Assembly (NCBI GenBank): GCA_043816765.1
Contig: JBDRHN010000023.1
Location: 17,353-81,352, forward strand
Source: a bacterium
GTDB taxonomy: Bacteria > Patescibacteriota > Patescibacteriia > JBDRHN01
Length of the DNA: 64,000 nt
Direction: 5' to 3'
Position numbers and translations under genes: made by a program. Below are positions 10,807-57,617 of this stretch, in pieces. The notes beneath the pieces are model-generated. The model searched no databases. It was given only the letters and a program-made list of their open reading frames with translations, and was not told the DNA's origin. Numbering within the stretch: the stretch's first letter is position 1; every line of letters begins with the position of its first letter.

Positions 10807-10818
10807 ATTTTCAAAAAA

Positions 10819-12036
10819 TCAATACTGCTCCTCCCAATACTCCACCGTAATCACGGGCGAAAAATCGCTGCCGCCCAAAGTGTCAATAATAACAGAATCA
10901 TCATAACTTATATCCACGCCATTATATAATAACGCGAAATCAACACTTCTCGCTATTATGCCGCCATTTAAAGTAAAGTCGCTTGATAAATTTGTCAAAG
11001 ACAATTCATTTCCTGCATATATCACGCCATTTACAGAAATATCATTAACGCATCGCAAAAACTCTATATTGCTTTTTGAAAACATCCCCGCTGGATATTC
11101 ATCAATATGGTTGATATTTAAAGTGGCGCTATAATCAGGGCAAACTTGCCACCATTTCTTATCGCGCCCAACAGTTATTTTTCCGCTTGTCGCCAAAACC
11201 CCGTTTACTGTTAAATCATGATTGTCTTCTATAATAATATTGCCAGAGACATAAACTGCCCCATCAAACGTGACAGGACCCGAATCCAATAAAACGTTAA
11301 ATTCCGCTTTTGAATAATACTGTCCGAGCAATTGCGCTTGCGACTTGAATGAATCCGGATCAAAAGAATCAAAATCAACAGCCGGTATATCTAAATATTC
11401 AGGAGCGGGAGGATTCACATTTGCAGAATGCATTTCAGCGGCATTTATAGTTGAAAAACCCAAAATAAAAATATCATCCGCGGCTTGCGCCTTGTCCTGC
11501 GCGTCAACAACACTGGCAAGGGTTGCCACTATATCATCATTCGCAAAAATGCTTCCATTGTCAATATCAATATCCGCCGCCGCAACATCAATATCTTGAT
11601 CTGCCAAAATCGCGTTATTATCAATCGCGCTCTCCCCCAACGCTTTAAAAATTTTCGTTTTTATCACTCGCTTGGATTGCTTGTTTCCAAAAGACATCGC
11701 GCTTGCCGCGGTAACATCCGCTTTCGCAAGATCATAATTTTGTATTAAAATATCAAAACTTCCATTGGCGAACAATTCAGAACCACCGCTATAGCTTTGC
11801 GTCCAATTTGAATCTGTTTCAAAATTATTTTCCCATGCAGGATCGTTTTTTAATTTCCAAATAACATATTCAATCCCGGATTCCGCCATATAATACGTCT
11901 GCTGAGATATGGAATAACTGTCTGAAATCCGTTTTTCGCTTAACGTCGAAGTTAAAAAAAAACAACCCATTGTTATCAACAAAGAAGTAAAAAGAATAGC
12001 CGGGATAAGAGCGAAACCGCTGGAATATTTATTCAT
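10819..12036 (-). CDS. large secreted pilus-associated protein with pilin-like N-terminal hydrophobic segment
   Basis: MNKYSSGFALIPAILF.. prepilin-like leader lacking Glu5; Asp-rich beta-type repeats; heads pilin cluster. Confidence 0.55.
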   Translation of the reverse strand: MNKYSSGFALIPAILFTSLLITMGCFFLTSTLSEKRISDSYSISQQTYYMAESGIEYVIWKLKNDPAWENNFETDSNWTQSYSGGSELFANGSFDILIQNYDLAKADVTAASAMSFGNKQSKRVIKTKIFKALGESAIDNNAILADQDIDVAAADIDIDNGSIFANDDIVATLASVVDAQDKAQAADDIFILGFSTINAAEMHSANVNPPAPEYLDIPAVDFDSFDPDSFKSQAQLLGQYYSKAEFNVLLDSGPVTFDGAVYVSGNIIIEDNHDLTVNGVLATSGKITVGRDKKWWQVCPDYSATLNINHIDEYPAGMFSKSNIEFLRCVNDISVNGVIYAGNELSLTNLSSDFTLNGGIIARSVDFALLYNGVDISYDDSVIIDTLGGSDFSPVITVEYWEEQY

Positions 12037-14897: not shown

Positions 14898-16763
<1,866 letters not shown>

Positions 16764-16807: not shown

Positions 16808-16836
16808 CTTAGACGAGGCAGTGCCTCGTCTCTACA
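16808..16836. repeat. 29-bp palindrome family A (GTAGAGACGAGGCA[C/G]TGCCTCGTCTCTAC), copy in groES-groEL spacer
   Basis: TTAGACGAGGCAGTGCCTCGTCTCTACA. Confidence 0.8.
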
Positions 16837-16849
16837 TTCAATCATCGCG

Positions 16850-21511: not shown

Positions 21512-21525
21512 AAAGTTAGTGTTTT

Positions 21526-21584
21526 GTAGAGACGAGGCACTGCCTCGTCTCCAGCCCAAGACGCGGCAGTGCCTCGTCTCTACA
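21526..21584. repeat. family A palindrome, two adjacent copies between the purP paralogs
   Basis: GTAGAGACGAGGCACTGCCTCGTCTC and AAGACGCGGCAGTGCCTCGTCTCTACA. Confidence 0.85.
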
Positions 21585-25407: not shown

Positions 25408-25802
25408 ATATGAAATGCTTTGAATAATAATGGCGCATTGCGAAGATAAAAGGCTGGTTTGCTGGTGCTAACCGTTCAATGTCATTTTAACATTCTTACA
25501 ATGAAGTCTGTCCGTATTTTTCCACGACTTCCCACGCCATTTCAAACATTGCTTTTTGAATATTCGCAAAAAACTGGCTTGTGATCATAATGCCCATTCT
25601 GTTGGGCTTTTGTGGCAGGACTATTACTACTTTGTCTTCATAAATATTTATCTCGCAATTAAATAGATAATTAATTTTTTAAATCATCATCATTATACTC
25701 CAAACACCAATGTTTGGCAAAAAATCAACACTCTTGACATATTTTTTAGTTATGTTATCCTATACATATATGCACAAGATAAACAAACTAAATACTGATA
25801 AA

Positions 25803-26342
25803 ATGGCTAATATAGCCCAAATAGGTGAAATTATGTTTCATGCCAAAGATTTGGCTGGTTTGTGGCGAATAGAAAATACAAATACTTTATATAATACAAT
25901 AGCAAGGTATGTGAAAAAAGGGGCATTATTTAGAATTTACAAAGGATTTTATTCCATAAAACCTATTGATGAAATTGACCCTTTTGTACTGGGAACCAAA
26001 GCCATTCATAAATATTGCTATATAAGCGCGGAAACTGTTTTGACAAACAAAGGGATTATTCAACAAAATATTGATCAAATTACTTTTATGGCAAGCAAGA
26101 CAAAAAAATTAAAAATAGGCGATAATAATTATTATGTGAGACAGCTTGATGAAAAATATTTATATAACTCGGAGGGGATAAACGCTAAAGATAATTTCAA
26201 AATAGCTTCATTGGAGCGAGCTGTTGCTGATATGCTTTATTTTAATCCAAAAACTTTTTTTGATGCTAAGAATTTAATTAACTGGCAAAAAATGAGGGCT
26301 ATCCAAAAAAAAATCGGATACCCTTTGACCGATAGACAATAA
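25803..26342 (+). CDS. abiEi: AbiEi-family antitoxin / transcriptional regulator
   Basis: AbiEi_4-like wHTH N-domain; immediately upstream and co-oriented with AbiEii; start trimmed to 25803. Confidence 0.6.
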   Translation: MANIAQIGEIMFHAKDLAGLWRIENTNTLYNTIARYVKKGALFRIYKGFYSIKPIDEIDPFVLGTKAIHKYCYISAETVLTNKGIIQQNIDQITFMASKTKKLKIGDNNYYVRQLDEKYLYNSEGINAKDNFKIASLERAVADMLYFNPKTFFDAKNLINWQKMRAIQKKIGYPLTDRQ

Positions 26343-26347
26343 ATGAT

Positions 26348-27136
26348 ATGATTATATCAAACTCAAAAGATGCAATTCATAAAGCATGGCTTTTCCGCTT
26401 GCTTAACGCAATTTATGATAATGCGTTTTTAGCTAATAATTTATATTTTAAGGGCGGAACTTGCGCGGCTATGCTTGGATATTTAGATCGGTTTTCAATT
26501 GATTTGGATTTTGATTTGGCTGCTGAAAACAAATCCCCCCAACCCCCCTTTGCGAGAGGGGGAAATATTGAAAAAAATTTGGAAATAATATTTAAAAAAT
26601 TGGGGCTTTCTATCAAAGACAGAAGCCAAAAAGCGCCTCAATATTTTTTAAAATATCCAAGAAAAGAAAACGAGAGAAATACAATTAAAATAGATATTAC
26701 AACAGATGCGCCAAAATCCAATATTTATAAACCAATGATTTTTAAAGATATTGATAGAATTATAAATTGCCAAACCATAGAAACGATGTTTGCAAATAAA
26801 TTGGTTGCGCTTATTGATAGGTTTGAAAAAAATGGATCTATCGCAGGACGTGGTTTATATGATATTCATCATTTTTTTATCAAAGGTTTTAGATATAACA
26901 AAGAGGTAATTATTGAAAGAAGAAAAAAAGATTTGATTTCTTTTTTTGATGAGTTGATTTTATTTATAGAAAAAAATATAAATGAAACTGTTATAAATCA
27001 GGATTTGAATTATCTTTTGCCAAATGATAAATTTCAGGCGATACGAAAAGTTTTAAAAAATGAAACAAAAATGTTTTTAGAAGACGAGATGGGGATATGC
27101 GAAAAAAAATTAATACCAATGTCTAATGCGGCATAA
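26348..27136 (+). CDS. abiEii: AbiEii/AbiGii nucleotidyltransferase toxin with in-frame GC-palindrome insertion
   Basis: LYFKGGTCAAMLGYLDRFSIDLDFD signature; insertion KSPQPPFARGG at 26531-26566. Confidence 0.75.
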   Translation: MIISNSKDAIHKAWLFRLLNAIYDNAFLANNLYFKGGTCAAMLGYLDRFSIDLDFDLAAENKSPQPPFARGGNIEKNLEIIFKKLGLSIKDRSQKAPQYFLKYPRKENERNTIKIDITTDAPKSNIYKPMIFKDIDRIINCQTIETMFANKLVALIDRFEKNGSIAGRGLYDIHHFFIKGFRYNKEVIIERRKKDLISFFDELILFIEKNINETVINQDLNYLLPNDKFQAIRKVLKNETKMFLEDEMGICEKKLIPMSNAA

Positions 27137-31230: not shown

Positions 31231-31343
31231 GGAAAATTGGTGTTAGTTGTTAATTATTTTTTATTATAAAAACATGAATCAATCTAATTTTTGGCTTTAT
31301 AAATAATAAAAATTGTTAGTGTTAAGAATTGGTTTCGGTGTAT

Positions 31344-31877
31344 TTATTTAAAATAAACTCCTGCATACATTGCACTTTCCAAAATCATAATAACCAAATA
31401 ATACTTTTCCATTAACTCAAGGGATGAGACAATATGTTTATACTTTATGTCTTCGCTTAAAGAGTTTATGATTACCTTGGAAACCAAATGCTCTTCATCG
31501 CCTATTTTTTCAATTATTGCCTCGGAGGCAGTAAAAGCAAGCTTTATATAATAAACATCTTGACTTGGATATTTACAAAAACCGTTGCCAAAATAATATC
31601 CACTTTCTCTGGGGTTGCTGTTGAAAGAACTTATTCCTGAATCATACCTAAATGGACTAATTTTTTTATTAAAATTACCCATTATATCATCAATTTCAAA
31701 CTCAAAAGTCTTCATAAATTCACGAATTATCTCATCGTTTACCTTTAATTCAGCAAACAAAGAGACACATTGGGATATCCAATCAAGCAACTCCTTCTCC
31801 TGAAAAACTGTCTTATTGTCAATAAACTGTTTAAGTGCTTCTGCTCTTTTTTTGTACTCTTGTGATTTTAAATTCAT
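31344..31877 (-). CDS. hypothetical protein
   Basis: 177-aa ORF, no recognised motif. Confidence 0.5.
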   Translation of the reverse strand: MNLKSQEYKKRAEALKQFIDNKTVFQEKELLDWISQCVSLFAELKVNDEIIREFMKTFEFEIDDIMGNFNKKISPFRYDSGISSFNSNPRESGYYFGNGFCKYPSQDVYYIKLAFTASEAIIEKIGDEEHLVSKVIINSLSEDIKYKHIVSSLELMEKYYLVIMILESAMYAGVYFK

Positions 31878-31938
31878 ATTTTATTTTTATACTCTTCCTT
31901 CAAAATAGTAAATAGGAGAGGATGGGTGGTGAATTTTT

Positions 31939-31967
31939 TTGACAATGTGGATAAAATTTGCTATATT
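31939..31967 (+). promoter_or_regulatory. consensus sigma70-type promoter (TTGACA-N17-TATATT)
   Basis: TTGACAatgtggataaaatttgcTATATT; near-identical architecture at 37371. Confidence 0.6.
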
Positions 31968-31974
31968 AAAAATA

Positions 31975-32073
31975 CAAAAACCTGTATCCTGAACTGTCAC
32001 CGGATGGTGGCGTGGCTGGGACTCCCAGCATAGGGACGTGGTTGGGAAAAGCCCTTTTTTAGGGCGTTTTTTT
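31975..32073 (+). ncRNA. candidate small RNA (~100 nt) ending at intrinsic terminator
   Basis: no CDS; GC-rich structured core; terminator GCCCTTTTTTAGGGC + T7 at 32051-32073. Confidence 0.4.
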
Positions 32074-32162
32074 GCTATTTAAACGCCACTCATTTTCAAT
32101 GCGATTTTTAATAATTTCTTTGTAAATTTAGGACTTTCGCATTTGAATAAAAACATCACCAT

Positions 32163-32410
32163 CTGTCATTCCAGAAAATTTTTTCCCACGGCATTTAACA
32201 ATAGTATTTTGCTCTGCTTAGAATGATATTAACAAAAACTTGGTTAAACTCACTGAAAAAATTTATCTGGAATCCAGGAGGCATTGCAATAACTCCTGGA
32301 TTCCAAATAAATTTTTTAATCTTATTGTTCTGGCTATTATTAAATAAAAAATATTATTTTATTTTAATTTGTTTTAATCAGCGCCGTGGAAAAAATTTTT
32401 TGGAATGACA
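32163..32410. mobile_element. MITE-like element (~250 bp) with 27-bp terminal inverted repeats and central palindrome
   Basis: TIR GTCATTCCAGAAAATTTTTTCCCACGGC / GCCGTGGAAAAAATTTTTTGGAATGAC; central CTGGAATCCAGGAG..CTCCTGGATTCCA; related partial copy 54760-54920. Confidence 0.6.
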
Positions 32411-32442
32411 CCTTTTTATTCGCAAACGCAAAAATCCTAAAG

Positions 32443-33444
32443 CTATAACGTCGTAATCGGCCTTGACTGCGTGATATAAAATTTACCTTTTGAAAAAGCC
32501 CATTCAATGTCTTGCGGTTTTTTGTAATGCTTTTCAATTTGACAGCAAATTTTGGACAGTTCAATTATTTGCTTGTTATTTAATTTCTGTTTTTCTTGTT
32601 TTGATTTTGAAACAGGTTGCCACACAATTCCTGAACTGGTTGAATTTTTGCGAACCAACATTTTTTCTTGCTCTGCAATATTTATATCTAAAATTTCAAA
32701 TTCTCCATCGTAGAGACGAGGCACTGCCTCGTCTCTATACTTGTTCACAATATAACTGTCCGGCGTTATCTGTCCTGAAACTATCGCCTCTCCCAGTCCG
32801 TATCCGGCTTCAATGATCATCTGATTTTTATCTTTTGTGATGGGGTGAACAGTGAAACAGACCCCTGATATTTCTGACTGGATCATTTTCTGAACCACAA
32901 CGGCAACGCCGATTTTTTGGTCAACTAAATTTTTTTCATAACGGTAAAAAATCGCTCTTGAGGTATAAAGCGATGACCAGCATTTCTTAACGTTTTTTAA
33001 AAGCGTTTTTTTTGTTGTGTTTAAATATGTTTCCAGCTCCCCGGCCCATGACGCTACTATTGAATCTTCTGCTGTGGCTGAACTGCGCACCGCCACAGAT
33101 TTTGCTTTAAGTTTTTTAAATTCCGCGTTAATTTCGTTAATTAAAACTTTCTGAATTTTGGTGTCGTTTATAATATCGCGAATAATATTAGACGCGCGGT
33201 CAATGGAATTTATGTCATCAAAATTTATTTGAGATAATTGGGCTTTTATTTCCAGCCCGACTTCCGCTGTCTCCGCGCGCGATCTCGCGCTTAAAAAATA
33301 ATCAAATGCGTCGGCTAAAATAACAAAACCATTCGGAACCGGAATTTTTACGTTAATCATTTCTCCGAGCGACGCGCCTTTCCCGCCGGCGGTTTTAATG
33401 TCTCTTGCGGAGATTTTTGAGAATGGGGAGGTGAATTTTGGCAT
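32443..33444 (-). CDS. PPDK_N-type ATP-grasp protein (PEP synthase / rifampin phosphotransferase N-domain family), stand-alone, with in-frame palindrome insertion
   Basis: GGKGASLGEM motif, RSSATAEDS, DIEWA..QSRPIT; insertion YRDEAVPRLYDGE at 32710-32738. Confidence 0.8.
   Translation of the reverse strand: MPKFTSPFSKISARDIKTAGGKGASLGEMINVKIPVPNGFVILADAFDYFLSARSRAETAEVGLEIKAQLSQINFDDINSIDRASNIIRDIINDTKIQKVLINEINAEFKKLKAKSVAVRSSATAEDSIVASWAGELETYLNTTKKTLLKNVKKCWSSLYTSRAIFYRYEKNLVDQKIGVAVVVQKMIQSEISGVCFTVHPITKDKNQMIIEAGYGLGEAIVSGQITPDSYIVNKYRDEAVPRLYDGEFEILDINIAEQEKMLVRKNSTSSGIVWQPVSKSKQEKQKLNNKQIIELSKICCQIEKHYKKPQDIEWAFSKGKFYITQSRPITTL
32710..32738. repeat. family A palindrome inside PPDK_N CDS (in frame)
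   Basis: GTAGAGACGAGGCACTGCCTCGTCTCTAT. Confidence 0.85.
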
Positions 33445-33448
33445 AGTT

Positions 33449-34687
33449 TTATTTTAAAATTTTTATTATTCCTTTATCTGCGTCAACTTCAACTACATCT
33501 CCAGTTTTAATAATTTTCGTAACATCTTTTATAGCAATAATACATGGGGTGCCGAGTTCTCTGGAAATTACCGCCGCATGCGTTGTAATGCCTCCGGTTT
33601 CAGTTAAAACAGCCGCGGCTTTTTTCATGGCTGGCACATATCTGGTTGATGTATATGCGGCAACTAAAATATCTCCTTTTTTTATTGAAGCAAGCGCGTC
33701 ATCTTTTCCGTTTGTTACAACTGCCTTTCCTTTTGTCTTGCCTGGCGATGCGGGTTGTCCTTTAAGCACTTTTTGATTCCCAACAGGAAATACTTCGGTT
33801 AGTTTCCCTTTTTCAAGAAAACGTTCCGCTTCATTTCCTTGATAAATTTGTAATTTTTTTCCTTGATAAAAAAGTATAGTCAATTTTTTGCGTTCTGAAA
33901 TAAGTTTTGTGGGGGGCGTTTTTGTTGCTATCATTTGTCTAATTTCTTTTGGTAAAAGAAATAACGTATCTTTAGTGTCTGAGAGTTTAATCCTGTTCGC
34001 AATCTGCAGAAGAAGTTTATTCCAAAAAACAGCGCGTTCTTCTGTAAATAAGGCGGATCCATCAGCTCTAATATACGCTCCGGCGCGCAATATTGTGCTT
34101 AAATTTTCCTCTTTTTTGTTTAAACGAAAAGCTCCATTTAATTTAGGCATGAGTATCTTTACATAACGAGTTTCGCGGAGCGGTTGTGTGTAGTAAATTT
34201 TATTTTGATCAACTTCTTTTGCATTATCGCTATATTCTGATAATGCCTCAAATAAATCTTCTCCAGTGAGAGAACTAAACATATAAAGCATATTACTTAC
34301 TGCGGCTATGGGAACGCTTAGTTCAAACCCCGAAAGAAATAATCTGCAAAGTTCGGCATCCGAAATATTGTCAAATTTTACAGAATTATTTTCTTTTAAA
34401 AATTTTCTTAGTTTTATTTTTTCTGCTTCATAAAAATTTAATACGTTTTTAATCCATTTGGTATCGTTTAATTTATTGCGAAAACATTTTGAAAGATGAA
34501 TAACATCATCCTCAAGCCCATATTTTTTCTGCTCCCCGTTTTTAATAATTGATAACAATCTATAACGACAACCGCACAAATTTTCAAATATTTCAAAAAA
34601 TTCTTCGCCCGCAAAAGCAACAGCCTGAAGCGGCACAATATCAACACTAAAAAATAATTCGTATTTTTTGTTTTTAAATTTGATCAT
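33449..34687 (-). CDS. PEP-utilizing-enzyme mobile (phosphohistidine swivel) domain protein with ~260-aa unknown N-terminal domain
   Basis: C-terminal ETGGITTHAAVISRELGTPCIIA swivel signature; no PEP-binding TIM barrel. Confidence 0.75.
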   Translation of the reverse strand: MIKFKNKKYELFFSVDIVPLQAVAFAGEEFFEIFENLCGCRYRLLSIIKNGEQKKYGLEDDVIHLSKCFRNKLNDTKWIKNVLNFYEAEKIKLRKFLKENNSVKFDNISDAELCRLFLSGFELSVPIAAVSNMLYMFSSLTGEDLFEALSEYSDNAKEVDQNKIYYTQPLRETRYVKILMPKLNGAFRLNKKEENLSTILRAGAYIRADGSALFTEERAVFWNKLLLQIANRIKLSDTKDTLFLLPKEIRQMIATKTPPTKLISERKKLTILFYQGKKLQIYQGNEAERFLEKGKLTEVFPVGNQKVLKGQPASPGKTKGKAVVTNGKDDALASIKKGDILVAAYTSTRYVPAMKKAAAVLTETGGITTHAAVISRELGTPCIIAIKDVTKIIKTGDVVEVDADKGIIKILK

Positions 34688-34829
34688 TTTTTTTTATATT
34701 AATTTTTTAAAAAAATATTCCGCTTAATCAAGAAACCGCTCGATCTTTTTTGAAACATATTTCGTTAATTGGACAAATTTGTCCATATACTGAAATGGTA
34801 TATTTTATTTTAAAAACATTGCCAAATTT

Positions 34830-36215
34830 TTAACTTAAAATTTTTATAATCCAAATTGGAAAAATATTTCGTTGCGCGGAAAATTCCAGTTTATCTTTTG
34901 AAATTATTGTATAAACATCGCCGGCTTTTTGCGCCTTTCGCCTGATAAATGCCATATCGCCCTCTTTAATGCTTGAAGTATGCTTCACTTCAAAATAGCG
35001 ATAACTTTTTTTGTCCATCAAATCTTTGGCGGCAATAAAGTCAAATTCTTCTTTTCTGATCCGGCAAAAAGCAATATATTGATACTGCTCCCGCAATATG
35101 TTGTAGAAATAATTTTCCACCAAGAAACCTGCTGCAGGAGAATCAACCGCCAAATAATCAAGACCGCGAAAAGCGGCATAAAAATTAACGCTTTCCAAAT
35201 AAATTTTTCTTAACAGCCTTCTGGATTTGCGGAAAGATTTAGAAAAATTATACACAAAGTGAATTAAAAAACTGTTTTCAAAATAACGCAAGTACTTATT
35301 GACTGTCTCTTTATTTAATCCTGCTTCGCTTGCCAAATTTCCAATCTCTATAATTGAGCCGATTTCACTAACCGCTATTTGAAATAAAAATTTCAATTCT
35401 TCTATTTTTTCCGCGCCATATATTTTAGGAATATCATATTCCAAAGTTTTTTTATAAACCGCTTCAATTAAATATTTTTTGCGCGTTTCTATGTCAGGCT
35501 CATTAACCAAAACCGGAAACTGGCCAAAAAATAAATAATCGTAAAAATTTTTTTTCAACTCATTCCCCCATTGATAAACTAATTTTTCAATTCCGGACTT
35601 ATCAATCTCTTGTTGCCCTGGCGCGACGGCAAATTGCTGAAAATCAGCAAGCAATTCACTTTGCGCTCCTTTGATAATTAAGTATTCTTCAAAACTTAAA
35701 ACCGGCAATTTAAATTCATAAATCCGTCCGGCTAAACTCTCCGTAGCTTGTTTTTTTATAAACAAAGACGACGATCCGCTGATTACAAACTTCAAATTAG
35801 GCTCCGTATCATAATAGCGCTTAATAATATGCTGCCACTTTAATGCGTATTGCACCTCATCAATAAAAATATACCTCTTTTTGCCGGAAACGTTTGTTTC
35901 CAAAAAAATATTAATATAATCGGTTAAACTTACTTTACTGCCTATCAAATCTTCATCAAGAGTAAGAAAAAAAATATTTTCCGGTTTTGTTTCCTTGATT
36001 ATTTTTTGAATTAGCTGTTTCAAGAGAACGGTTTTTCCGGTTCGGCGCAAACCGATAATTGAAACGATTTCCCTTTTTTCTAAATAAGGAATAATTTTAT
36101 TTAGTAACGTTCTGCTATGCTTTATGGTTTTTAGGTCGGCAAAAAATAAATCAGCATCTTTCCAGTGTTTATTCTGACGATAAATTTCCGCTAATATTAT
36201 ATCTTTTTTGTTCAT
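34830..36215 (-). CDS. AAA+ ATPase, COG1373/DUF4143 family
   Basis: Walker A GLRRTGKT, Walker B IFIDEVQ; family architecture. Confidence 0.8.
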   Translation of the reverse strand: MNKKDIILAEIYRQNKHWKDADLFFADLKTIKHSRTLLNKIIPYLEKREIVSIIGLRRTGKTVLLKQLIQKIIKETKPENIFFLTLDEDLIGSKVSLTDYINIFLETNVSGKKRYIFIDEVQYALKWQHIIKRYYDTEPNLKFVISGSSSLFIKKQATESLAGRIYEFKLPVLSFEEYLIIKGAQSELLADFQQFAVAPGQQEIDKSGIEKLVYQWGNELKKNFYDYLFFGQFPVLVNEPDIETRKKYLIEAVYKKTLEYDIPKIYGAEKIEELKFLFQIAVSEIGSIIEIGNLASEAGLNKETVNKYLRYFENSFLIHFVYNFSKSFRKSRRLLRKIYLESVNFYAAFRGLDYLAVDSPAAGFLVENYFYNILREQYQYIAFCRIRKEEFDFIAAKDLMDKKSYRYFEVKHTSSIKEGDMAFIRRKAQKAGDVYTIISKDKLEFSAQRNIFPIWIIKILS

Positions 36216-36269
36216 ATTACATTTATGAGGGTTATAACAGCTATAATTGTATCATTTATGCTTGTGTTG

Positions 36270-37334
36270 TCAAGCTAATTTTACGATCCTCACAATCCCC
36301 TTTTCCACGTCAACTTCCACTTTGTCGCCGTCTTTTAAAACTTTCGTAGCGATTTTTGTTCCGATGATGCAGGGGATTTTCAGTTCGCGGGCAATTATTG
36401 CGGCGTGGCAAGTTATTCCGCCGTCGTCAGTTATGATGGCGGCGGCTTTTTTCATGCCAACAAGGTGTTCGGGGCGAGTCATTGGCGCGACTAAAATATC
36501 TCCTTTTTCCACCTTGCCGATATTTTGAGCTGTCATAATAATTTTAACTTTTCCTGTGGCTTTGCCTATGGATACCGCAATTCCGCTTATTTCATTTACG
36601 TCTCCAAAATCCAGCCTGTTGACTATATTTAAAAAATTCTTAGCCTCTTGTCCTGCGTAAATATTCGTTATCTTTCCATTTCTATAAATAAACAAGCTCG
36701 CTTTTCTTCTATTTTTTAATTCAGAAACATTAAATTTTTTCGCTAAAATATTTTTGAATTCCCCAGAACAAGAATATCGCAACAGTTCATGATCTATTCC
36801 TGTCCTTCTGCTAATTTCTTTTAAAATTTTATCAGCCAAAGCAATAAAAGCTAAAGTATACACTTTTCTTTGATCCTGCCATTTGATAAATATTTCAGTA
36901 AGCCTTGAAATCGCTTTAATTTCCGGAGTAAATTTGTATTTTCCAAACAATTTTTCTTTTTCCCGTTTATGTTTTTCTAAAATTTTATTTTGCTTATGTT
37001 TAAATATTCTTTTTATTTCGTCTTCCATTTCTTTAAAGCTATATTCTTTGTGCCCGACATAACTTGATTTTATCCATGAATATTTTATCAAATGCGATTC
37101 CGCCAAAATAGCCAAATCTTTTTTCTTGCTAAGAAATTTTTTTAAACTCCCATTCTTGAATCCCGATTTTTTTATTTTAACCGCGATTTTTCTTAAATCA
37201 TCATCCTCTTGGTTTATAAATGACGGATCAATCGGCGCGCTTAAAACGGAAAATATTTTGTGATAATTTTTTATTTTATTTTCTTCGCAATATTTCTTGG
37301 TCAAAAAATCAAATCTTTTATCAGCGTAAAACAT
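36270..37334 (-). CDS. paralogous swivel (phosphohistidine) domain protein with unknown N-terminal domain
   Basis: DDGGITCHAAIIARELKIPCIIG; C-terminal ~150 aa collinear with 33449..34687. Confidence 0.75.
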   Translation of the reverse strand: MFYADKRFDFLTKKYCEENKIKNYHKIFSVLSAPIDPSFINQEDDDLRKIAVKIKKSGFKNGSLKKFLSKKKDLAILAESHLIKYSWIKSSYVGHKEYSFKEMEDEIKRIFKHKQNKILEKHKREKEKLFGKYKFTPEIKAISRLTEIFIKWQDQRKVYTLAFIALADKILKEISRRTGIDHELLRYSCSGEFKNILAKKFNVSELKNRRKASLFIYRNGKITNIYAGQEAKNFLNIVNRLDFGDVNEISGIAVSIGKATGKVKIIMTAQNIGKVEKGDILVAPMTRPEHLVGMKKAAAIITDDGGITCHAAIIARELKIPCIIGTKIATKVLKDGDKVEVDVEKGIVRIVKLA

Positions 37335-37370
37335 GTAGCCATCAATTGTCGTTATTTTGATAAAAAAAAA

Positions 37371-37398
37371 TAGAAAAAATTTGACACGATGAATTAAA
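37371..37398 (+). promoter_or_regulatory. consensus sigma70-type promoter (TTGACA-N16-TATATT)
   Basis: TTGACAcgatgaattaaattgcTATATTaaaaat, nearly identical to the promoter at 31939. Confidence 0.6.
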
Positions 37399-37404
37399 TT
37401 GCTA

Positions 37405-37522
37405 TATTAAAAATGAACGGCAAGCCCTATATGTGTCGTTTGGGCGCTCCCCTCTGTGAGGCTATGAGCTCAAACATCACAAACCCATAAGGCTCGTTCC
37501 CCCGAAGGGGGTTTTTATTTTT
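37405..37522 (+). ncRNA. candidate small RNA (~118 nt) ending at intrinsic terminator
   Basis: transcript between two minus-strand genes; terminator TCCCCCGAAGGGGGT + T-run at 37499-37524. Confidence 0.4.
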
Positions 37523-37571
37523 CTATAAATACTGCTTATCATAAACAATCTTGTCCTGAAAGATATTCACC

Positions 37572-38783
37572 CTATTCCAAAAATCCAAACAAATACAAAG
37601 GCATCTGTTTGCCGCCGGAAATTAAAATATCGTCTTTAACTAAATAAGAATTTTTGACCTCTTTTATTTGCTTACCCTTTTTGCCGGCTCCGCCGATCTC
37701 TAATGTATATCCATCGCAGATAATATCACCTTGCTTAGAAAAAAATACATTATATCCGGCATTCATCAGATGGCTTACGACAAACAACTCCCTGGTTTGT
37801 CCAAGATCAATCGGTTTGCCGATTGAATTATTGATTGCGCAAAACAAGTTCGTATTATTCAGATAAACTTTTTCTGTATTTCTAATCAAGGCATGTCCTT
37901 GTTTGTTTATTAACAAAAAACGCAATAGTCCGCTTTCTCTCAACATTTCAATATAGTCAGCAATGGTTGTGTGGTCTTTGCCTAAACTTTTAGACAAATT
38001 ATTGACATTTAAACTTCCCGGCTTGCTGGTGGCGAAAAAATAAATAATTTTCCTAAAAACGTCCAGATTATTTGTTTTCAATGAATAAAAAGAGCTGATA
38101 TCCTCAAAAACTGTTTTATTTATAATGCCAAGCAAGGCGTCTTTATAGTCATCATAATTTTCTAACTCCATAAAAATAGGATAATAACCCTGCTTATAAT
38201 ACTCTTTTAAATAACCGATTAATTTTGAAATGTCTGATAATTCTTTTGATATTTTAGAGCCGTCATTGATAATATTTTTTAAAGTAAAAACAGGAAATTC
38301 TTTTTTTAGTTTAACCTCAAGAAATTCCCGGAAAGAAAAGCCGCTCATATATTTTAAATTTGCCCTGCGAGATAAATCATATCTGCCCTTGACAAGATCA
38401 AGACTGGAACTGCCCGAAAAAATAATTTTCATTTTCGGATAAGAATCATAAATATTTTTTAGTTCTTGATTCCAATTTTTATAACGATGAATTTCATCAA
38501 TGCAAATAATTTCGCCGTTATATTCTTTGTGAAATCTGTCGGCTAAATCAATCAAACTATTTTCGGAAAAATAAAGATTGTCGGCAGACACATAAATACC
38601 TTTATCTGTTTTTTGGTATTTCTGTTTAAGGTAATTAAGCAAAAAAATGGTTTTGCCAACGCCTCGCGCGCCAACAACGCCGGTAATTCTGTTGGTTAAT
38701 TTAAAATCAGAAAAAAATTTTCTTTGATAAATAGAATCTATTGATTTTAATAATCTATGATAAGTTTCAATTAAGCTTTGCAT
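37572..38783 (-). CDS. AAA+ ATPase, COG1373/DUF4143 family (second paralog)
   Basis: Walker A GARGVGKT, Walker B ICIDEIH. Confidence 0.8.
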   Translation of the reverse strand: MQSLIETYHRLLKSIDSIYQRKFFSDFKLTNRITGVVGARGVGKTIFLLNYLKQKYQKTDKGIYVSADNLYFSENSLIDLADRFHKEYNGEIICIDEIHRYKNWNQELKNIYDSYPKMKIIFSGSSSLDLVKGRYDLSRRANLKYMSGFSFREFLEVKLKKEFPVFTLKNIINDGSKISKELSDISKLIGYLKEYYKQGYYPIFMELENYDDYKDALLGIINKTVFEDISSFYSLKTNNLDVFRKIIYFFATSKPGSLNVNNLSKSLGKDHTTIADYIEMLRESGLLRFLLINKQGHALIRNTEKVYLNNTNLFCAINNSIGKPIDLGQTRELFVVSHLMNAGYNVFFSKQGDIICDGYTLEIGGAGKKGKQIKEVKNSYLVKDDILISGGKQMPLYLFGFLE

Positions 38784-38902
38784 ATAATTTAGCTAAATAA
38801 TTAGTTTGGATATACTCAAATAATTATATAGTATTTTTTGGGTGCAGTCAAATTTTTAAAAAAAATAGCGGCTTGTCTGCCGCTATGTTGAGAAAAAAAA
38901 TT

Positions 38903-38944
38903 TTCGGGTAGGTTCGGCGACGTCGCCGAACCTACCCGAAAATT
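38903..38944 (-). terminator. 42-bp perfect GC-rich palindrome acting as efp terminator
   Basis: TTTTCGGGTAGGTTCGGCGACGTCGCCGAACCTACCCGAAAA; core shared with 10109-10130; T-run follows on minus strand. Confidence 0.6.
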
Positions 38945-38950
38945 TTTTTC

Positions 38951-39511
38951 TTAAACTCTCTCCACATACTCCCCCGTCTCCGTATTCACTCTGACCATCT
39001 CATCCTGCTCCACAAAAATCGGAACATTGATAATCGCTCCGGTTTCCAGTTTTGCTTTTTTTGTTACCGAGCCTTGCGCCGTATCGCCTCGCGTCGCCGG
39101 TTCGGTTTCGGTTATTTTGAGTTCAACTTTTGTCGGTAATATAATGCTGATTGGCCTGCTTTCATACAATAAAACACTCACCTCTTCACCTTCTTTCAAA
39201 AAATTAATCTGTTCTTCAACAACATCAAGCGGCAAAGCAATTTGTTCGTAGCTTTTGCTGTCCATAAAACAAACCTCATTACCATCAGAATACAAAAAAC
39301 TCGCTTTTGATCTTTCCATGTCAGCCCCTTCAACCTTATCAGAGGCGTTGAAAGTTTTTTCTATAGTAGAACCCGTGATAAGATTTTTCAGCTTAGTTCG
39401 CACGCAGGCCTTGCTGCGGGCGGATTTTGAGTGTTGCGATTCAACAACGACATGGGGTTCGTTGTTGATTTTTATCACTGTTCCTATCCTTTTGAGATCA
39501 TTCATTTCCAT
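38951..39511 (-). CDS. efp: elongation factor P
   Basis: 186 aa, KPGKGxA-region and three OB-like segments typical of EF-P. Confidence 0.9.
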   Translation of the reverse strand: MEMNDLKRIGTVIKINNEPHVVVESQHSKSARSKACVRTKLKNLITGSTIEKTFNASDKVEGADMERSKASFLYSDGNEVCFMDSKSYEQIALPLDVVEEQINFLKEGEEVSVLLYESRPISIILPTKVELKITETEPATRGDTAQGSVTKKAKLETGAIINVPIFVEQDEMVRVNTETGEYVERV

Positions 39512-44203: not shown

Positions 44204-44453
44204 TGTCATTCCGACCGGAGTTGAAAAAATTTAAAAACACAATGGTGCCCATTCAATATAACTACTAAATAAAAATACAAAAAAAATTTATATTACAATT
44301 TAGTTTCATAGTTCAATATTAAAAAAATATTTTCAATCAGTAGAATAGATTAGCTCAATCATCAAGGGATTCCTCCGCTCCGCAAATATTGAATAGAAAA
44401 TTTTATGTCTTCGACAAAAATTTTCTATTCAATATTTGCTCCGGTCGGAATGA
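44204..44453. mobile_element. MITE-like element with perfect 18-bp terminal inverted repeats TTGTCATTCCGACCGGAG
   Basis: TIRs at 44204-44221 and 44436-44453; internal palindrome AATATTGAATAGAAAATTTT..AAAATTTTCTATTCAATATT; solo terminus-like copy at 17205-17225. Confidence 0.6.
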
Positions 44454-44501
44454 CAGTGTTTTAAAATTTAAAATTTGTGTAATTTAAAATTTACCTAACA
44501 T

Positions 44502-46061: not shown

Positions 46062-46064
46062 TTT

Positions 46065-46093
46065 GTAGAGACGAGGCACTGCCTCGTCTCTAC
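46065..46093. repeat. family A palindrome between 7TM gene and ATP-grasp gene
   Basis: GTAGAGACGAGGCACTGCCTCGTCTCTACA. Confidence 0.85.
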
Positions 46094-46109
46094 ATTATTT
46101 TATTAATTT

Positions 46110-49462: not shown

Positions 49463-50647
49463 ATGCAACAAAAAGGAAAATTCGGACAATACGGCGGGGT
49501 GTTCTCGCCGGAAACATTGATGCCCGCTTTGGAAGAGCTTGAAGCGGCTTATTTTAATATTGTTAAAAAAGATAAAAAGTTTAATGCTGAATTAAATTAT
49601 TTATTGCAACAATACGCGGGCAGACCGACGCCGCTTTATTTTGCGGAGAATTTGTCAAAAAAATTGGGACGTAAAATTTATCTCAAACGAGAAGACTTGT
49701 TGCATGGCGGAGCGCATAAGACTAACAATGGTTTGGGGCAAGGTTTGCTTGCCAAATATATGGGAAAGAAAAGGATTATAGCGGAAACGGGGGCGGGGCA
49801 GCATGGGTTTGCCGTAGCGATGATTGGCGCGTTTTTGGGGATACAGACGGAAGTATATATGGGCGTGGAAGATATAGAAAGGCAAAGAATGAATGTTCTG
49901 CGAATGAGGATGTGCGGGGCGAAAATTAATCCGGTTGAAATTCGTCCGGGGGTTGGTTCCCTCAAAGACGCGACTAACGAGGCGATGCGCGACTGGATAA
50001 CAAATGTTCGCACTACTTATTATATAATCGGTTCAGCGGTCGGGCCTCATCCGTATCCAACTATGGTGGCGCAATTTCAGAGAGTTATCAGCAAAGAGAT
50101 AAAAAAGCAGAGCATAAAACAGATCGGTAAATTGCCTGATACTGTGATTGCTTGCGTTGGCGGAGGCAGTAACGCAATCGGCGCTTTTTATGAATTTATT
50201 AATGATAAAAAAGTAAAGTTAATAGGCGTTGAGCCTGCCGGTTTGGGTGTTAATACGACTAAAACCGGAGCGTCAATCGGCAAAGGACGAGATGGAATAT
50301 TGCACGGTTCGCTGTCTAAAGTTCTTCAAGATAAAGACGGGCAAATTAAAGAGGCGTATAGCGTTTCCGCGGGGCTTGATTATCCGGGGGTTGGTCCGCA
50401 ACATGCTCATCTCGCAAAAACAGGGCGCGCGAAATACGAGGCTGTTACCGACAAAGAGGCGTTGGACGCGTTTGAATTGTTGTCAAAGTGCGAAGGAATC
50501 ATTCCCGCGCTTGAATCGGCTCATGCTGTTGCTTATGCTGTGAAATATGCTAAAATATGTCGGAAGGATGAGGTTGTGGTGGTTAATTTGTCGGGGCGGG
50601 GAGATAAAGATATGGAACATGTGAGCTCTCTAATAGGACACAGATAA
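49463..50647 (+). CDS. trpB: tryptophan synthase beta chain
   Basis: full-length TrpB (PLP Lys region [17 protein letters not shown]). Confidence 0.96.
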
Positions 50648-50740
50648 ACACAGACTAAAGCGCAGATAAACACAGATAAAATTATAAAAAATCAGTGTTC
50701 ATCTGCGCCCGAATGGTCAGTGTTTATTTGTGTGCTATTA
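50638..50740 (+). repeat. ~100-bp CAGATAAACACAG-family repeat, copy 1 (overlaps trpB stop)
   Basis: near-identical to 51138-51240; internal imperfect palindrome GCGCAGATAAACAC...GTGTTCATCTGCGC. Confidence 0.85.
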
Positions 50741-50747
50741 TATAAAT

Positions 50748-51155
50748 ATGCAAAATTATCAACACTCAGAATTGACCAAAAAAATTATTTCCTGTTTTTA
50801 TCAAGTCTACAATACTCTCGGTTATGGGTTTTTAGAAAAGGTCTATGAAAATTCTTTAATAAAAGAGTTGAATAAAAATGGATTAAAACCAGTTCAACAA
50901 ATGCCGATTAAGGTTTATTATGAAGGTGAATTGGTTGGTGATTATTTTGCAGATATTGTTGTTGAAAATTTGGTGATATTAGAACTAAAAGCGCAGGAAC
51001 TTCTATGCCCTGAGAACGAAGCTCAGCTATTGAACTATTTAAAAGCAACGAAGTATGAGATTGGTTTATTGTTAAATTTTGGAACAAAGCCAGAGATAAG
51101 GCGAAAAATATATAGCAATAATTTAAAGAATTCAACACAGATAAACACAGACTAA
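50748..51155 (+). CDS. GxxExxY protein (predicted PD-(D/E)xK nuclease fold)
   Basis: LGYGFLEKVYENSL motif plus DIVVEN..LELK; flanked by direct repeats; start at ATG 50748. Confidence 0.75.
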   Translation: MQNYQHSELTKKIISCFYQVYNTLGYGFLEKVYENSLIKELNKNGLKPVQQMPIKVYYEGELVGDYFADIVVENLVILELKAQELLCPENEAQLLNYLKATKYEIGLLLNFGTKPEIRRKIYSNNLKNSTQINTD

Positions 51156-51240
51156 AGCGCAGATAAACACAGATAAAATTATAAAAAATCAGTGTTCATC
51201 TGCGCCCGAAGGGTCAGTGTTTATTTGTGTGCTATTTAAA
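51138..51240 (+). repeat. ~100-bp repeat, copy 2 (direct repeat of copy 1)
   Basis: approximately one mismatch over ~100 bp relative to copy 1. Confidence 0.85.
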
Positions 51241-52337: not shown

Positions 52338-52495
52338 AAGAATCCCGCGGTTGTTGCAGGAACAACGAGATTCTACTCGTCGGCTCCATAGTCCCGAACG
52401 AAGTGAGGGCTATGGAGCCGATATGCGCGCGATAGCAAAACATGCCGGCTCCATAGCCCCCGCTGGCGCGGGGGACTATGGAGCCAACGCGTATT
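52338..52495. repeat. GC-rich palindrome cluster (GGCTCCATAG..CTATGGAGCC hairpins x2 and others)
   Basis: hairpins at 52383-52420 and 52447-52485; partial copy 62137-62150. Confidence 0.8.
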
Positions 52496-52627
52496 AAATC
52501 TAAAATAAATACCAAGCAAGGTGCTGGACACCCAAGGGGGTGTTTGGTTGGCGGTTGAAAAATTTATAAAATAAATAAAGCCCCCGCAAGCTTGAAGTGA
52601 AAATAAGACATTGCGGGGGGGGGGCGG

Positions 52628-54045: not shown

Positions 54046-54150
54046 TGAATAGCACACAGATGAACACTGACCCTGCGGGCGCAGATTAACACTAATTTTT
54101 TATAATTTTAAATCTGTGTTTATCTGCGCTTTAGTCTGTGTTAATCTGTG
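54046..54150 (-). repeat. ~100-bp CAGATAAACACAG-family repeat, copy 3 (inverted orientation)
   Basis: ATCTGTGTTTATCTGCGCTTTAGTCTGTGTTAATCTG is the reverse complement of copy-1 5' part. Confidence 0.8.
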
Positions 54151-54166
54151 TCCTATTTTTTTAATT

Positions 54167-54703
54167 ATGTATTTTGTAAAATTAAAAACCAAAAAAGATA
54201 CTGTTGGTTTTGCTAATCAAATAGCTAATATTTGCAACAATCAAACCCCCCAACCCCCCTTGTCAGGGGGGCTATATGTTGTTGCCCTCATTGGCGAGCT
54301 TGGGGTTGGGAAGACTTTTTTTACGAAAGCTTTGGGAAAGGCGCTTGGGGTTAAAGAAACGATTAAAAGTCCGAGTTTTAATTTGATGAAAGTTTATGAA
54401 ATACCGGGCAGACGAACCGTAGAGACGAGGCAGTGCCTCGTCTCTACACAAATCAAAACGTTAGTTCATGTTGATTGTTATCGTTTGAATAGTGCTGAGG
54501 AGTTAATTGATATTGGGCTTTTGGATTATTTTGGATATAATAATACTCTTATTGTTATTGAGTGGGCTGATAAAATAAAAAAAATCTTGCCGAAAGATGC
54601 AGTTTGGGTAAAATTTAAAATGGGAAAAGATGGGGTGAGAATGGCGGCGGTGAATTTAAAACCAATGTCATTCCAAAAAATTTTTTCCATCAATATTAGT
54701 TAA
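54167..54703 (+). CDS. tsaE: tRNA t6A biosynthesis ATPase TsaE with two in-frame palindromic insertions
   Basis: Walker A GELGVGKT; SPSFNLMKVYE...LVHVDCYRL TsaE signature interrupted by RRTVETRQCLVST (54419-54448); QTPQPPLSGG insertion at 54243-54272; start at ATG 54167. Confidence 0.78.
   Translation: MYFVKLKTKKDTVGFANQIANICNNQTPQPPLSGGLYVVALIGELGVGKTFFTKALGKALGVKETIKSPSFNLMKVYEIPGRRTVETRQCLVSTQIKTLVHVDCYRLNSAEELIDIGLLDYFGYNNTLIVIEWADKIKKILPKDAVWVKFKMGKDGVRMAAVNLKPMSFQKIFSINIS
54419..54448. repeat. family A palindrome inside tsaE (in frame)
   Basis: GTAGAGACGAGGCAGTGCCTCGTCTCTACA. Confidence 0.85.
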
Positions 54704-54759
54704 CGTAAACCAAAATAGAATAATATTACTTTAGTAAAAATCTATATTAATGAGATTAA

Positions 54760-54920
54760 AAAATTTATTTGGAATCCAGGAGGAATTGCACAAACCCCTG
54801 GATTCCAGATAAATTTTTTCAGTGCATTAATTAATTTTTTGTTAATATTAGATTTTAATCAAAGTAAAAATGTTTGCTTAAGGGCGATGGAAAAAATTTT
54901 CTGGAATGACAGGCTTTGGT
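54760..54920. mobile_element. partial MITE-like element (central palindrome + right TIR), related to 32163-32410
   Basis: TTTGGAATCCAGGAGG..CCCTGGATTCCAGA and GCGATGGAAAAAATTTTCTGGAATGACAGG. Confidence 0.5.
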
Positions 54921-55939: not shown

Positions 55940-56012
55940 GCACCAATAACTCAGTGGTGAGAGTGCCACCCTTATAAGGTGGAAGTCGATGGTTCAAATC
56001 CATCTTGGTGCA
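55940..56012 (+). tRNA. tRNA-Ile (anticodon UAU)
   Basis: acceptor GCACCAA/TTGGTGC, D-arm ACTC-AGTGGTGA-GAGT, anticodon stem CCACC/GGTGG loop CTTATAA, T-arm GATGG-TTCAAAT-CCATC. Confidence 0.8.
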
Positions 56013-56093
56013 CAATATTGAACTTCTCTTTATGAAAAACGCCGAGGATTTTGGCGTTGGTTTAGATTATCTAACATTACATCCCCACTGGCA

Positions 56094-56330: not shown

Positions 56331-56449
56331 AAATTGTTGCTGAAATTTTGTAAGTTTGGTAGTATTGTATTAAATATTCAAAAAAATCAATAAATTAGAC
56401 GCTAACGCGCGCATTGTCTAGAGGAAAAGCAGGTTTGTGGAAACTTATT

Positions 56450-57496
56450 ATGAAAAAAGATAATCAAAAATCTCAAATTATTATTTATAAAACAGAGGAT
56501 GGGCGGACTAAAATTGATGTTCGCTTTGAGGATGAAACTGTTTGGCTTACGCAAAACACGCTGGCGGAACTTTTTCAGACTACAAAACAAAATATAAGCC
56601 AACATATAAAGAATATCTTTGAAGAGGGCGAACTTAAGCCAAATTCAGTTGTAAAGGATTTCTTGACAACTGCCGCTGACGGTAAAAATTATACAACAAA
56701 CTATTATAATTTAGATCTTATTATTTCTGTCGGCTATCGCGTTAAAAGCGGTATTGCCACAGCTTTTCGCCAGTGGGCGACCGAACATTTAAGAGAATAT
56801 ATTATAAAAGGTTTTGTATTGGATGACGAACGTTTGAAAAATCCCGATTTGCCTTTTGATTATTTTGAAAATTTAACGCGCCGTATTGCGGACATTCGCA
56901 CCTCTGAAAAAAGATTTTATAGAAAAATTACTGATATTTACGCTACCAGCGTTGATTATGATCCGACAGATGAGCAAAGCATTTTATTTTTTCAAACGGT
57001 TCAAAATAAAGTTCACTACGCCGTAACAGGAAATACCGCGGCAGAAATAATCGCAAATAGAGCCGACGGCGACAAGCCGAATGCCGGTCTTACATATTTC
57101 CGCGGGACAAAACCGACAAAAGAAGAGGCGCTGATAGCTAAAAATTATTTAAGCGAACAGGAACTTCTTGTTTTAAATAATATTGTTGAGCAGTATCTTG
57201 TATTTGCCGAAGGGCAAGCGATGCAAAGAATTCCAATGTATATGAAAGATTGGATTGATAAGCTGCATAGTTTTTTGCAGATTAATAATAAGGAAATTCT
57301 AAAAGACGCGGGAAAAATTTCGCATGATTTGGCGGTGGAAATAGCTGAAAAAAAACTTGCGGAGTATAAAAAAATTGAATCAAAAAAAATAGATGGTGAT
57401 TTTGATGTTTTTGCGAATAAGGCGATTAAGCTGGTTGGCGGGAATAAAATTTTGTCAATCTATTTTACAAACCATTTGACAAATATTTTTACATAA
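56450..57496 (+). CDS. RhuM-family (virulence-associated) protein
   Basis: IIIYKTEDGRTKIDVRFEDETVWLTQNTLAELFQ typical RhuM N-terminus. Confidence 0.7.
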   Translation: MKKDNQKSQIIIYKTEDGRTKIDVRFEDETVWLTQNTLAELFQTTKQNISQHIKNIFEEGELKPNSVVKDFLTTAADGKNYTTNYYNLDLIISVGYRVKSGIATAFRQWATEHLREYIIKGFVLDDERLKNPDLPFDYFENLTRRIADIRTSEKRFYRKITDIYATSVDYDPTDEQSILFFQTVQNKVHYAVTGNTAAEIIANRADGDKPNAGLTYFRGTKPTKEEALIAKNYLSEQELLVLNNIVEQYLVFAEGQAMQRIPMYMKDWIDKLHSFLQINNKEILKDAGKISHDLAVEIAEKKLAEYKKIESKKIDGDFDVFANKAIKLVGGNKILSIYFTNHLTNIFT

Positions 57497-57498
57497 AT

Positions 57499-57527
57499 TA
57501 TACTACCAATAAGGTAGTATTTTTTAT
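57499..57527 (+). terminator. Rho-independent terminator after RhuM gene
   Basis: ATACTACC-aat-AAGGTAGTAT + T6. Confidence 0.6.
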
Positions 57528-57537
57528 ACATTTATAT

Positions 57538-57592: not shown

Positions 57593-57617
57593 GATAAAAA
57601 TTTCTCTGCAAAAATTT

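Follow-up and report, generated by a model that had tools for sequence, protein, structure and literature searches.

Two predicted promoter-to-terminator small RNA genes, one of them a DUF3800-IX RNA, in a variable island of a Patescibacteria chromosome

The RNAs known as DUF3800-associated motifs comprise 11 dissimilar, unrelated structures tied to a single RNase H-like domain; several of them end in terminators, and they lie on either strand near genes (Weinberg et al., 2017; PMC5737381). Adjacency to a DUF3800 gene is the association that named the motifs and not a property of the RNAs. Neither cis-regulatory nor ribozyme activity was detected for them and no functional hypothesis was offered (PMC5737381), and the literature searchable up to mid-2026 holds no later functional work on these RNAs. 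The DUF3800 domain itself recurs, without an assigned role, in retron, Cas12a2/a3 and Cas13-kinase loci (PMC7736814; PMC10910872; PMC13594972; bioRxiv 10.64898/2026.08.25.746378). Here we describe a locus that adds a clean example of a self-contained gene for such an RNA. It lies in a 64-kb stretch of contig JBDRHN010000023.1 from a Patescibacteria genome, hereafter the window (the whole stretch of DNA analysed, positions 1-64000, GC content 0.358), which carries two small transcription units that we call RNA1 and RNA2.

As judged in silico from promoter, terminator, fold and freedom from overlapping coding sequence, both sites are predicted to be independent genes for structured non-coding RNAs of ~100 nt, built to the same architecture and each running from a near-consensus sigma-70-type promoter to an intrinsic terminator. 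Their elements are the following.

31939..31967, plus strand: promoter 1, with TTGACA at 31939-31944, a 17-nt spacer, TATATT at 31962-31967 and a TG extended -10
31974..32073, plus strand: predicted RNA1 transcript, ~100 nt, with +1 placed 7 nt past the -10 hexamer
31979..32047, plus strand: DUF3800-IX core, formed by a closing helix P1 and two hairpins, with conserved GAACUGUC...GGCGU and UAGG
32051..32073, plus strand: intrinsic terminator 1, GCCCTTTTTTAGGGC followed by the T-run GTTTTTTT
37381..37408, plus strand: promoter 2, with TTGACA at 37381-37386, a 16-nt spacer, TATATT at 37403-37408 and a TG extended -10
37415..37522, plus strand: predicted RNA2 transcript, ~105 nt, from a putative start
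37415..37499, plus strand: RNA2 structured core, a long interrupted hairpin with the apical hairpin CCUC-UGU-GAGG
37498..37522, plus strand: intrinsic terminator 2, (T)CCCCCGAAGGGGG hairpin / TCCCCCGAAGGGGG, then the T-run TTTTTATTTTT

A preliminary description of this DNA had pointed to two plus-strand units between minus-strand genes, GC-richer and structured over ~100 nt, closed by textbook terminators and devoid of coding sequence, tRNA and signal recognition particle RNA, and all of this holds. The genes flanking both RNAs are without exception on the minus strand, and no open reading frame (ORF) of at least 40 aa overlaps 31974-32073 or 37415-37522. GC content is tRNA-like, at 0.59 in the RNA1 segment and 0.53 in the RNA2 segment; the two tRNAs have 0.49-0.59, and the window as a whole has 0.358. 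The predicted folds are better than those of shuffled sequences, with z = -2.5 for RNA1 (3 of 200 shuffles equally good) and z = -2.7 for RNA2 (0 of 200), whose fold energy is -36.8 kcal/mol over the 106-nt stretch 37415-37520, terminator hairpin included. Each hairpin is followed by a run of 5-7 T, and the stem of terminator 1 has 5 bp, 4 of them GC pairs. As for housekeeping RNAs, ARAGORN finds only two tRNAs, both elsewhere in the window, and no tmRNA, and the Rfam models for signal recognition particle RNA, 6S RNA and RNase P match neither site, even at E<=10.

The two promoters are nearly the same. At both sites the -10 element is TGCTATATT, 16-17 nt from TTGACA, and it forms part of a 16-mer, TTGCTATATTAAAAAT, common to promoter 1 (31958-31973) and promoter 2 (37399-37414); from -35 to +1, ~30 of 36 positions are identical. 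The 16-mer has exactly two copies in the window, both at these -10 regions, and none with 1-2 mismatches. The near-identity claimed in the preliminary description is thereby borne out, as are the first TTGACA at 31939 with its N17 spacer and the N16 spacer and -10 box of the second promoter (37381-37408); the second TTGACA had been placed at 37371, 10 nt away from its actual position, 37381. A repeated AT-rich 16-mer is by itself weak evidence, because ~6 repeated 16-mers arise per window in Markov-1 simulations; the shared one is meaningful because its register relative to the -35 and -10 boxes is identical at both sites. The 16/16 identity makes it reasonable to suppose that the two units may be co-regulated.

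That AT-rich intergenic DNA would mimic promoters and terminators by chance is conceivable in principle, since promoter-like hexamer pairs at relaxed stringency number 57 in the window against 48 expected, and AT-rich 16-mer repeats arise randomly. At strict stringency, however, the 64 kb contain 4 copies of TTGACA-N15-18-TATAWT where shuffled sequences predict 0.08, and promoter, GC island, significant fold and terminator follow each other in the correct order on the same strand at both sites. Together with the Rfam match of RNA1 (E=1.4e-8), these figures make a fortuitous origin extremely improbable; for site 1 it is effectively refuted. The two further copies of the strict pattern lie at 43638, upstream of what reads as an ordinary small ORF in the sequence, and at 61342, within the minus-strand RNase J ORF.

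RNA1 matches the Rfam family RF02968 (DUF3800-IX) with 52.9 bits, above the gathering score of 36.8 and over model positions 1-67 of 67. It has the three-helix architecture of the family together with the conserved nucleotides listed above, and its helices covary. In an alignment of RNA1 with three distinct phage members, which was fitted to the covariance model and so leans towards the structure, the three helices comprise 23 pairs, in which 85.9% of cells show standard pairing, and 9 of the 23 are changed on both sides; this level of pairing was reached by 0 of 500 shuffles, and controls with slid partners gave 38-52%. Because the match covers the full model and the helices covary with those of the phage members, RNA1 is a full-length, intact member of the family and not a fragment. 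On the evidence of its sequence, it is a bona fide DUF3800-IX RNA, and it adds to an already catalogued family a further member whose host and context are new. It differs from DUF3800-IX as described in being an autonomous unit that has a consensus promoter and a terminator of its own, and in residing in a Patescibacteria chromosome with no DUF3800 gene within 64 kb.

The phage members were retrieved with a pattern taken from the conserved core of RNA1. It matched four IMG/VR viral contigs, of which three are distinct, and each of the four scores 55-56 bits. On these high-GC contigs the RNAs lie at the following positions.

L055, 685-755: DUF3800-IX
L056, 9731-9802: DUF3800-IX
L057, 5813-5876: DUF3800-IX
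L058, 11363-11433: DUF3800-IX

In 3/3 distinct cases no more than ~1 kb separates the phage-borne RNA from terminase genes, which are of both the small and the large subunit and have a P22-type portal gene downstream: on one contig it is 8 nt upstream of the large terminase gene, on a second ~330 nt upstream of the small terminase gene, and on the third it lies on the strand opposite to a gpA-type terminase gene, ~750 nt past its end. Neither a sigma-70 promoter nor a terminator was seen in flanks of 50-60 nt, which were read by eye and not scanned, and PF12686, the DUF3800 domain, was not matched among the scanned ORFs beside these RNAs. A looser viral scan returned two additional DUF3800-IX matches of 17 bits that overlap long ORFs; these were not counted as members.

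RNA2 is of a different kind. Its core is a 29-bp interrupted hairpin whose closing stem, GAACG/CGUUC, extends from the predicted +1 to just before the terminator. The best Rfam match is DUF3800-V (RF02964) with 23.5 bits, under the gathering score of 37.4, so that membership in this family is not established. The match has E=0.0099 when 221 nt are searched and, to its detriment, E=2.9 window-wide, where it stands amid miRNA-model noise. In the 221-nt search DUF3800-V was the sole match from the bacterial structured small RNA (sRNA) collection that spanned its full model on the promoter strand. Four other models matched the region, namely mir-1276 and SNORD35 (both eukaryotic), STnc630 (minus strand, 5'-truncated) and ar15, an alphaproteobacterial sRNA that matched the plus strand over its full model with 12.2 bits. 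In architecture RNA2 is broadly similar to DUF3800-V: both are long hairpins of ~90 nt that have a closing stem and internal loops and are capped by a short GC apical hairpin, and some conserved loop nucleotides align (CCU-UAUG, AAGGC-CG). About one third of the model pairs are non-canonical in the RNA2 alignment and the outer stem is in another register. That the top match should be a second DUF3800 motif is suggestive, with the reservation that this reading was framed after the match was known. RNA2 may be a distant DUF3800-V relative or belong to a new class. As an sRNA, with its promoter, terminator, significant fold and closing stem at the predicted +1, it is plausible but unproven.

A 25-aa ORF, MNGKPYMCRLGAPLCEAMSSNITNP, overlaps RNA2 at 37413-37490, and its ATG at 37413 is 5 nt past the -10 hexamer; transcription starting at A37413 would give a leaderless message for this cysteine-containing peptide. 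By analogy with site 1, however, the expected +1 is G37415, which falls inside the ATG, and no comparable ORF follows the identical promoter of site 1. No Shine-Dalgarno sequence is present, and the hairpin running from +1 to the terminator would occlude translation, which leaves a peptide message very unlikely. The intergenic gap also contains a 46-aa mechanical ORF (37220-37360), which stops shortly before promoter 2.

The preliminary description had presented both units as orphan sRNA candidates and had allowed that they might turn out to be fragments of a known RNA family or leaders of longer mRNAs. For site 1, the sRNA assignment is upheld by the RF02968 match (52.9 bits) and by covariation with three phage members, and "orphan" no longer applies to a catalogued Rfam family; the unit does belong to a known family, but as a full-length RNA, neither fragment nor leader. 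Site 2, with no Rfam match above gathering threshold and no homologue found, is an unverified orphan, a singleton that stays a plausible candidate.

Both RNAs lie in a variable island between conserved MFS and EF-P genes, in which the order is 177-aa gene, RNA1, PPDK_N, PEP-utilizer, ATPase #1, truncated PEP-utilizer, RNA2 and ATPase #2. Its main features are these.

31233..38940, no strand assigned: variable island of 7.7 kb, between the conserved MFS and EF-P genes, holding both RNAs
31344..31877, minus strand: near-orphan gene of 177 aa, divergent from RNA1
34830..36215, minus strand: ATPase #1, AAA_14 + DUF4143, PADLOC PDC-S01, 27% identical to ATPase #2
36270..37346, minus strand: PEP-utilizer gene truncated at its 5' end, with 354 aa left of the 490 aa that all close homologues have
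37347..~38860, no strand assigned: RNA2/ATPase #2 block of ~1.5 kb, absent from the closest relative (L067), where ~8.3 kb stands in its place
37572..38783, minus strand: ATPase #2, AAA_14 + DUF4143, PADLOC PDC-S01, convergent with RNA2

The two ATPases match PDC-S01, a PADLOC phage-defence candidate, with E=1.5e-58 and 3e-31. Within its block, ATPase #2 has its own promoter and is convergent with RNA2. The NCBI protein accessions MFH1564445-51 include none for the truncated PEP-utilizer gene, which is consistent with a pseudogene call. Recent segmental duplication was considered as the origin of the shared promoter and ruled out: the ATPases are 27% and the two PEP-utilizers 36% identical, and since neither pair consists of recent duplicates, the shared promoter is not a by-product of such an event.

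Related loci amounting to 0.79 Mb were compared, in which RNA2 was searched with a single-sequence covariance model. One route took in 54 genome loci that carry a relative of PPDK_N, the gene next to RNA1; others went through relatives of ATPase #2 (77-81% identity, L059-L063), of the PEP-utilizer (67-89%, L067-L071), of ATPase #1 (>90%, L073) and of EF-P (>90%, L074 and L080, the latter tested with the RNA2 model only). The nearest loci are from Patescibacteria, e.g., Candidatus Buchananbacteria, and the closest relative, L067, has 90.6% nucleotide identity. Neither RNA1 nor anything RNA2-like is present in any of the 54 loci with PPDK_N relatives, which indicates that no synteny links the RNAs to the genes around them. 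RNA1 was not found in the ATPase #2, PEP-utilizer, ATPase #1 or EF-P relatives (L059-L063, L067-L071, L073 and L074), and no RNA2 homologue was found in the 0.79 Mb or on the contigs of the closest relatives of any flanking gene, L080 included. In L074 the EF-P and MFS/PBP genes are conserved and the position of the island is taken by 1.6 kb of unrelated sequence with a radical-SAM gene. Three viral-contig scans with RNA2 anchors gave nothing or chance matches, and BLAST of RNA2 against phage and plasmid collections gave nothing meaningful. A metagenome scan with GCCCTATATG-N46-62-CCATAAGGCTC returned three loci, which were set aside as chance matches with neither a promoter nor a match to the model.

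These surroundings raise the alternative that RNA2, and possibly RNA1, are non-functional relics, a promoter with a structured leader or part of an sRNA that came in with an inserted cassette or remained after a deletion, still transcribed but with no current role. PEP-utilizer homology to L067 stops at 37346, so that RNA2 stands 35 nt, counted to its -35 box, from a junction at which a rearrangement has cut a gene short; next to RNA1, the 177-aa gene is internally deleted, having lost 89 residues relative to a 265-aa homologue; and the searches made detected no RNA2 homologue, nor is there a DUF3800 gene in the 64 kb. Decay is nevertheless not what the RNAs display: -35 and -10 boxes, terminators and helices are intact in both units, RNA1 scores 52.9 bits against 55-56 for the phage members, and an identical 16-nt -10/discriminator region on two different RNAs argues for selection or a very recent origin. 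We consider relics unlikely.

The orientation of the units suggests another alternative, in which read-through antisense RNA or transcriptional interference would tune PPDK_N (32443-33444, by RNA1) and ATPase #2 (by RNA2), the RNA structure serving only as a stabiliser or as terminator context. Each RNA is convergent with the next gene, the stop codon of ATPase #2 is ~50 nt from the RNA2 terminator, and the stem of terminator 1 is short, as noted above. Yet both terminators are canonical in their T-runs, and RNA1 is separated from PPDK_N by a 370-nt gap that contains a MITE-like element and a 31-nt palindrome. The DUF3800-IX structure is moreover kept in unrelated contexts, on phage contigs and in either orientation to its neighbours, and this conservation indicates a function of the RNA itself. 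Interference with the convergent genes thus seems quite improbable as the main role.

Other described systems resemble the locus in part. DUF3800-I, drum and skipping-rope RNAs (PMC5737381) are likewise stand-alone structured RNAs with 3' intrinsic terminators, but none of these models matches either site in Rfam, even at E<=10. The msr-msd RNA of type VII retrons, whose reverse transcriptase is accompanied by DUF3800 (PMC7736814), is also a structured non-coding RNA, functionally linked to a DUF3800 protein within a defence system; in the window, by contrast, neither a reverse transcriptase nor a DUF3800 gene was found, and no flanking a1/a2 inverted repeats were identified. ToxI-like RNAs of type III toxin-antitoxin systems are small, highly expressed, terminator-ended and protein-binding and reside in defence islands, but ToxI consists of tandem direct repeats of ~36 nt upstream of the toxin gene on the same strand, whereas RNA1 and RNA2 contain no tandem repeat and their neighbouring genes are convergent.

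With modest confidence, we favour the reading that RNA1 and RNA2 are two autonomous trans-acting RNAs, strongly and similarly transcribed, stabilised, most likely protein-bound and linked to mobile elements or defence. Both would be made at high and roughly equal levels from the shared promoter, and would be protected by pairing of their 5' and 3' ends in addition to the terminator hairpin. They would then act in trans in mobile-element or defence conflicts, as the cofactor, regulator or decoy of a bound protein, which need not be a DUF3800 protein; action as base-pairing sRNAs or as cis-acting leaders is probably not their mode. A role of this kind was suspected by Weinberg et al. for the motifs associated with DUF3800.

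Several points weigh against this reading. PF12686 is matched by 0 of the 50 window ORFs of at least 120 aa that are not nested in a longer opposite-strand ORF, and the association that gives the family its name is thus missing from the 64 kb. Expression of both RNAs is a prediction from their promoters and terminators, and a protein-binding role is suggested by family precedent. The loci of ATPase #2 relatives with 77-81% identity contain no RNA2, which is therefore not an obligate partner of this ATPase. No search returned an RNA2 homologue, hence its helices have no covariation support.

A bolder proposal, which we hold to be doubtful, is that RNA2 is the founding member of a new structured-RNA class and that "DUF3800" RNAs are interchangeable modules of mobile elements with partners beyond DUF3800, perhaps ATPases of the PDC-S01 type. 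If this were true, genomes of candidate phyla would hold unsampled members of a wider set of RNA modules. Short of that, the locus weakens the assumption that DUF3800 RNAs need a locally encoded DUF3800 partner, and it offers two defined constructs with clear predicted 5' and 3' ends for expression and pull-down experiments. The gain is incremental, consisting of one member of a known family and one unverified singleton.

Predicted duplexes between RNA1 and RNA2, and between these sRNAs and all translation-start regions, were no better than those of shuffled sequences, the top matches being GC-rich repeat hairpins. The motif TATATTAAAAAT was considered as a general mark of ATPase cassettes and dropped after its other copies were read: it occurs 8 further times in the related loci, 3 of the 5 contexts read have no promoter in front, and the others belong to a single site that is conserved in L067-L070 and precedes an AAA_14 gene.

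Comparison with Pfam, PHROG and PADLOC gave no match for the 177-aa gene. Its single homologue found, the 265-aa protein mentioned above, is encoded in L072 within a type I restriction-modification operon (HsdS, HsdR), and an AlphaFold model of it, in which a hidden DUF3800/RNase H fold was sought, had a pLDDT of 36 and was unusable. Beside the 265-aa gene, on the minus strand of the locus (L072, 1-80), a divergent consensus promoter, TTGACA-N14-TGCTATACT, precedes a GC-rich predicted transcript (GGUGUUUGGAGGGUUCGCCCUGUCACGGCUAUCC...) that the contig end interrupts 46 nt in. This stub is not DUF3800-IX and has no Rfam match; L072 may be a second case in which this gene family is paired with a divergent small RNA.

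Around the PEP-utilizer and ATPase genes, the relatives have PEP-utilizer paralogues in extended arrays, with a 2'-5' RNA ligase gene and genes of the AAA_14, AbiEii and HAD types scattered among them. In L067 the PEP-utilizer 3' end is duplicated (9390-9471 and 10804-11005, corresponding to window 36158-36359) around an extra 417-aa AAA_14/DUF4143 gene, which suggests that AAA_14/DUF4143 genes insert as cassettes duplicating or restoring the end of the target gene. At the other edge of the island, a perfect-type palindrome with 35-nt arms (38887-38956), absent in L067, separates the stop codon of EF-P from the conserved terminator of that gene; it has the look of a terminator-like hairpin, bidirectional and acquired by insertion. 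Outside the island, defence and toxin-antitoxin genes occur at 25710-27136, 56414-58400 and 59011-60174, and include an AbiEi/AbiEii pair, a RhuM-family gene, a helix-turn-helix gene with a SocA/Panacea antitoxin-like gene, and a third AAA_14/DUF4143 ATPase.

The window is also rich in repeats. Elements of ~245 nt resembling miniature inverted-repeat transposable elements (the MITE-like element above), with terminal inverted repeats starting TGTCATTCC, are found at 32164-32410, 44204-44455 and 54666-54911; the TGTCATTCC motif occurs 10 times against 0.66 expected, in three complete inverted pairs and as single ends at 17208, 17587, 52250 and 58945. The copy 90 nt 3' of the RNA1 terminator encloses the 31-nt perfect-type palindrome (32256-32317). 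A palindrome resembling repetitive extragenic palindromic (REP) sequences, GTAGAGACGAGGCACTGCCTCGTCTCTAC, is present at at least five sites (16811-16838, 21523-21551, 32710-32737, 46062-46096 and 54418-54448) and also at the contig end of the relative L068; the copy at 32710-32737 is inside the PPDK_N frame (protein ...RDEAVPRLYDGE...) and appears to be an in-frame insertion. A direct repeat of ~101 nt (50638-50739 and 51135-51236, with partial copies at 54127-54159 and 62322-62354) flanks a 141-aa PD-(D/E)XK_3 gene (50730-51155), which is situated between a gene for a PALP (pyridoxal-phosphate-dependent) enzyme and trpA, the tryptophan synthase alpha-chain gene; this unit looks like a small mobile cassette with duplicated target or ends. 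GC-rich intergenic hairpins (GGTGCTGGACACCC...GGGTGTCCAGCACC) at 16668-16702 and 52519-52550 form, together with tandem GGCTCCATAG...CTATGGAGCC palindromes at 52380-52490, the highest GC peaks of the window. Finally, a tRNA-Ile with a UAU (tat) anticodon is encoded at 55940-56013; such a tRNA is an uncommon bacterial route to reading AUA.

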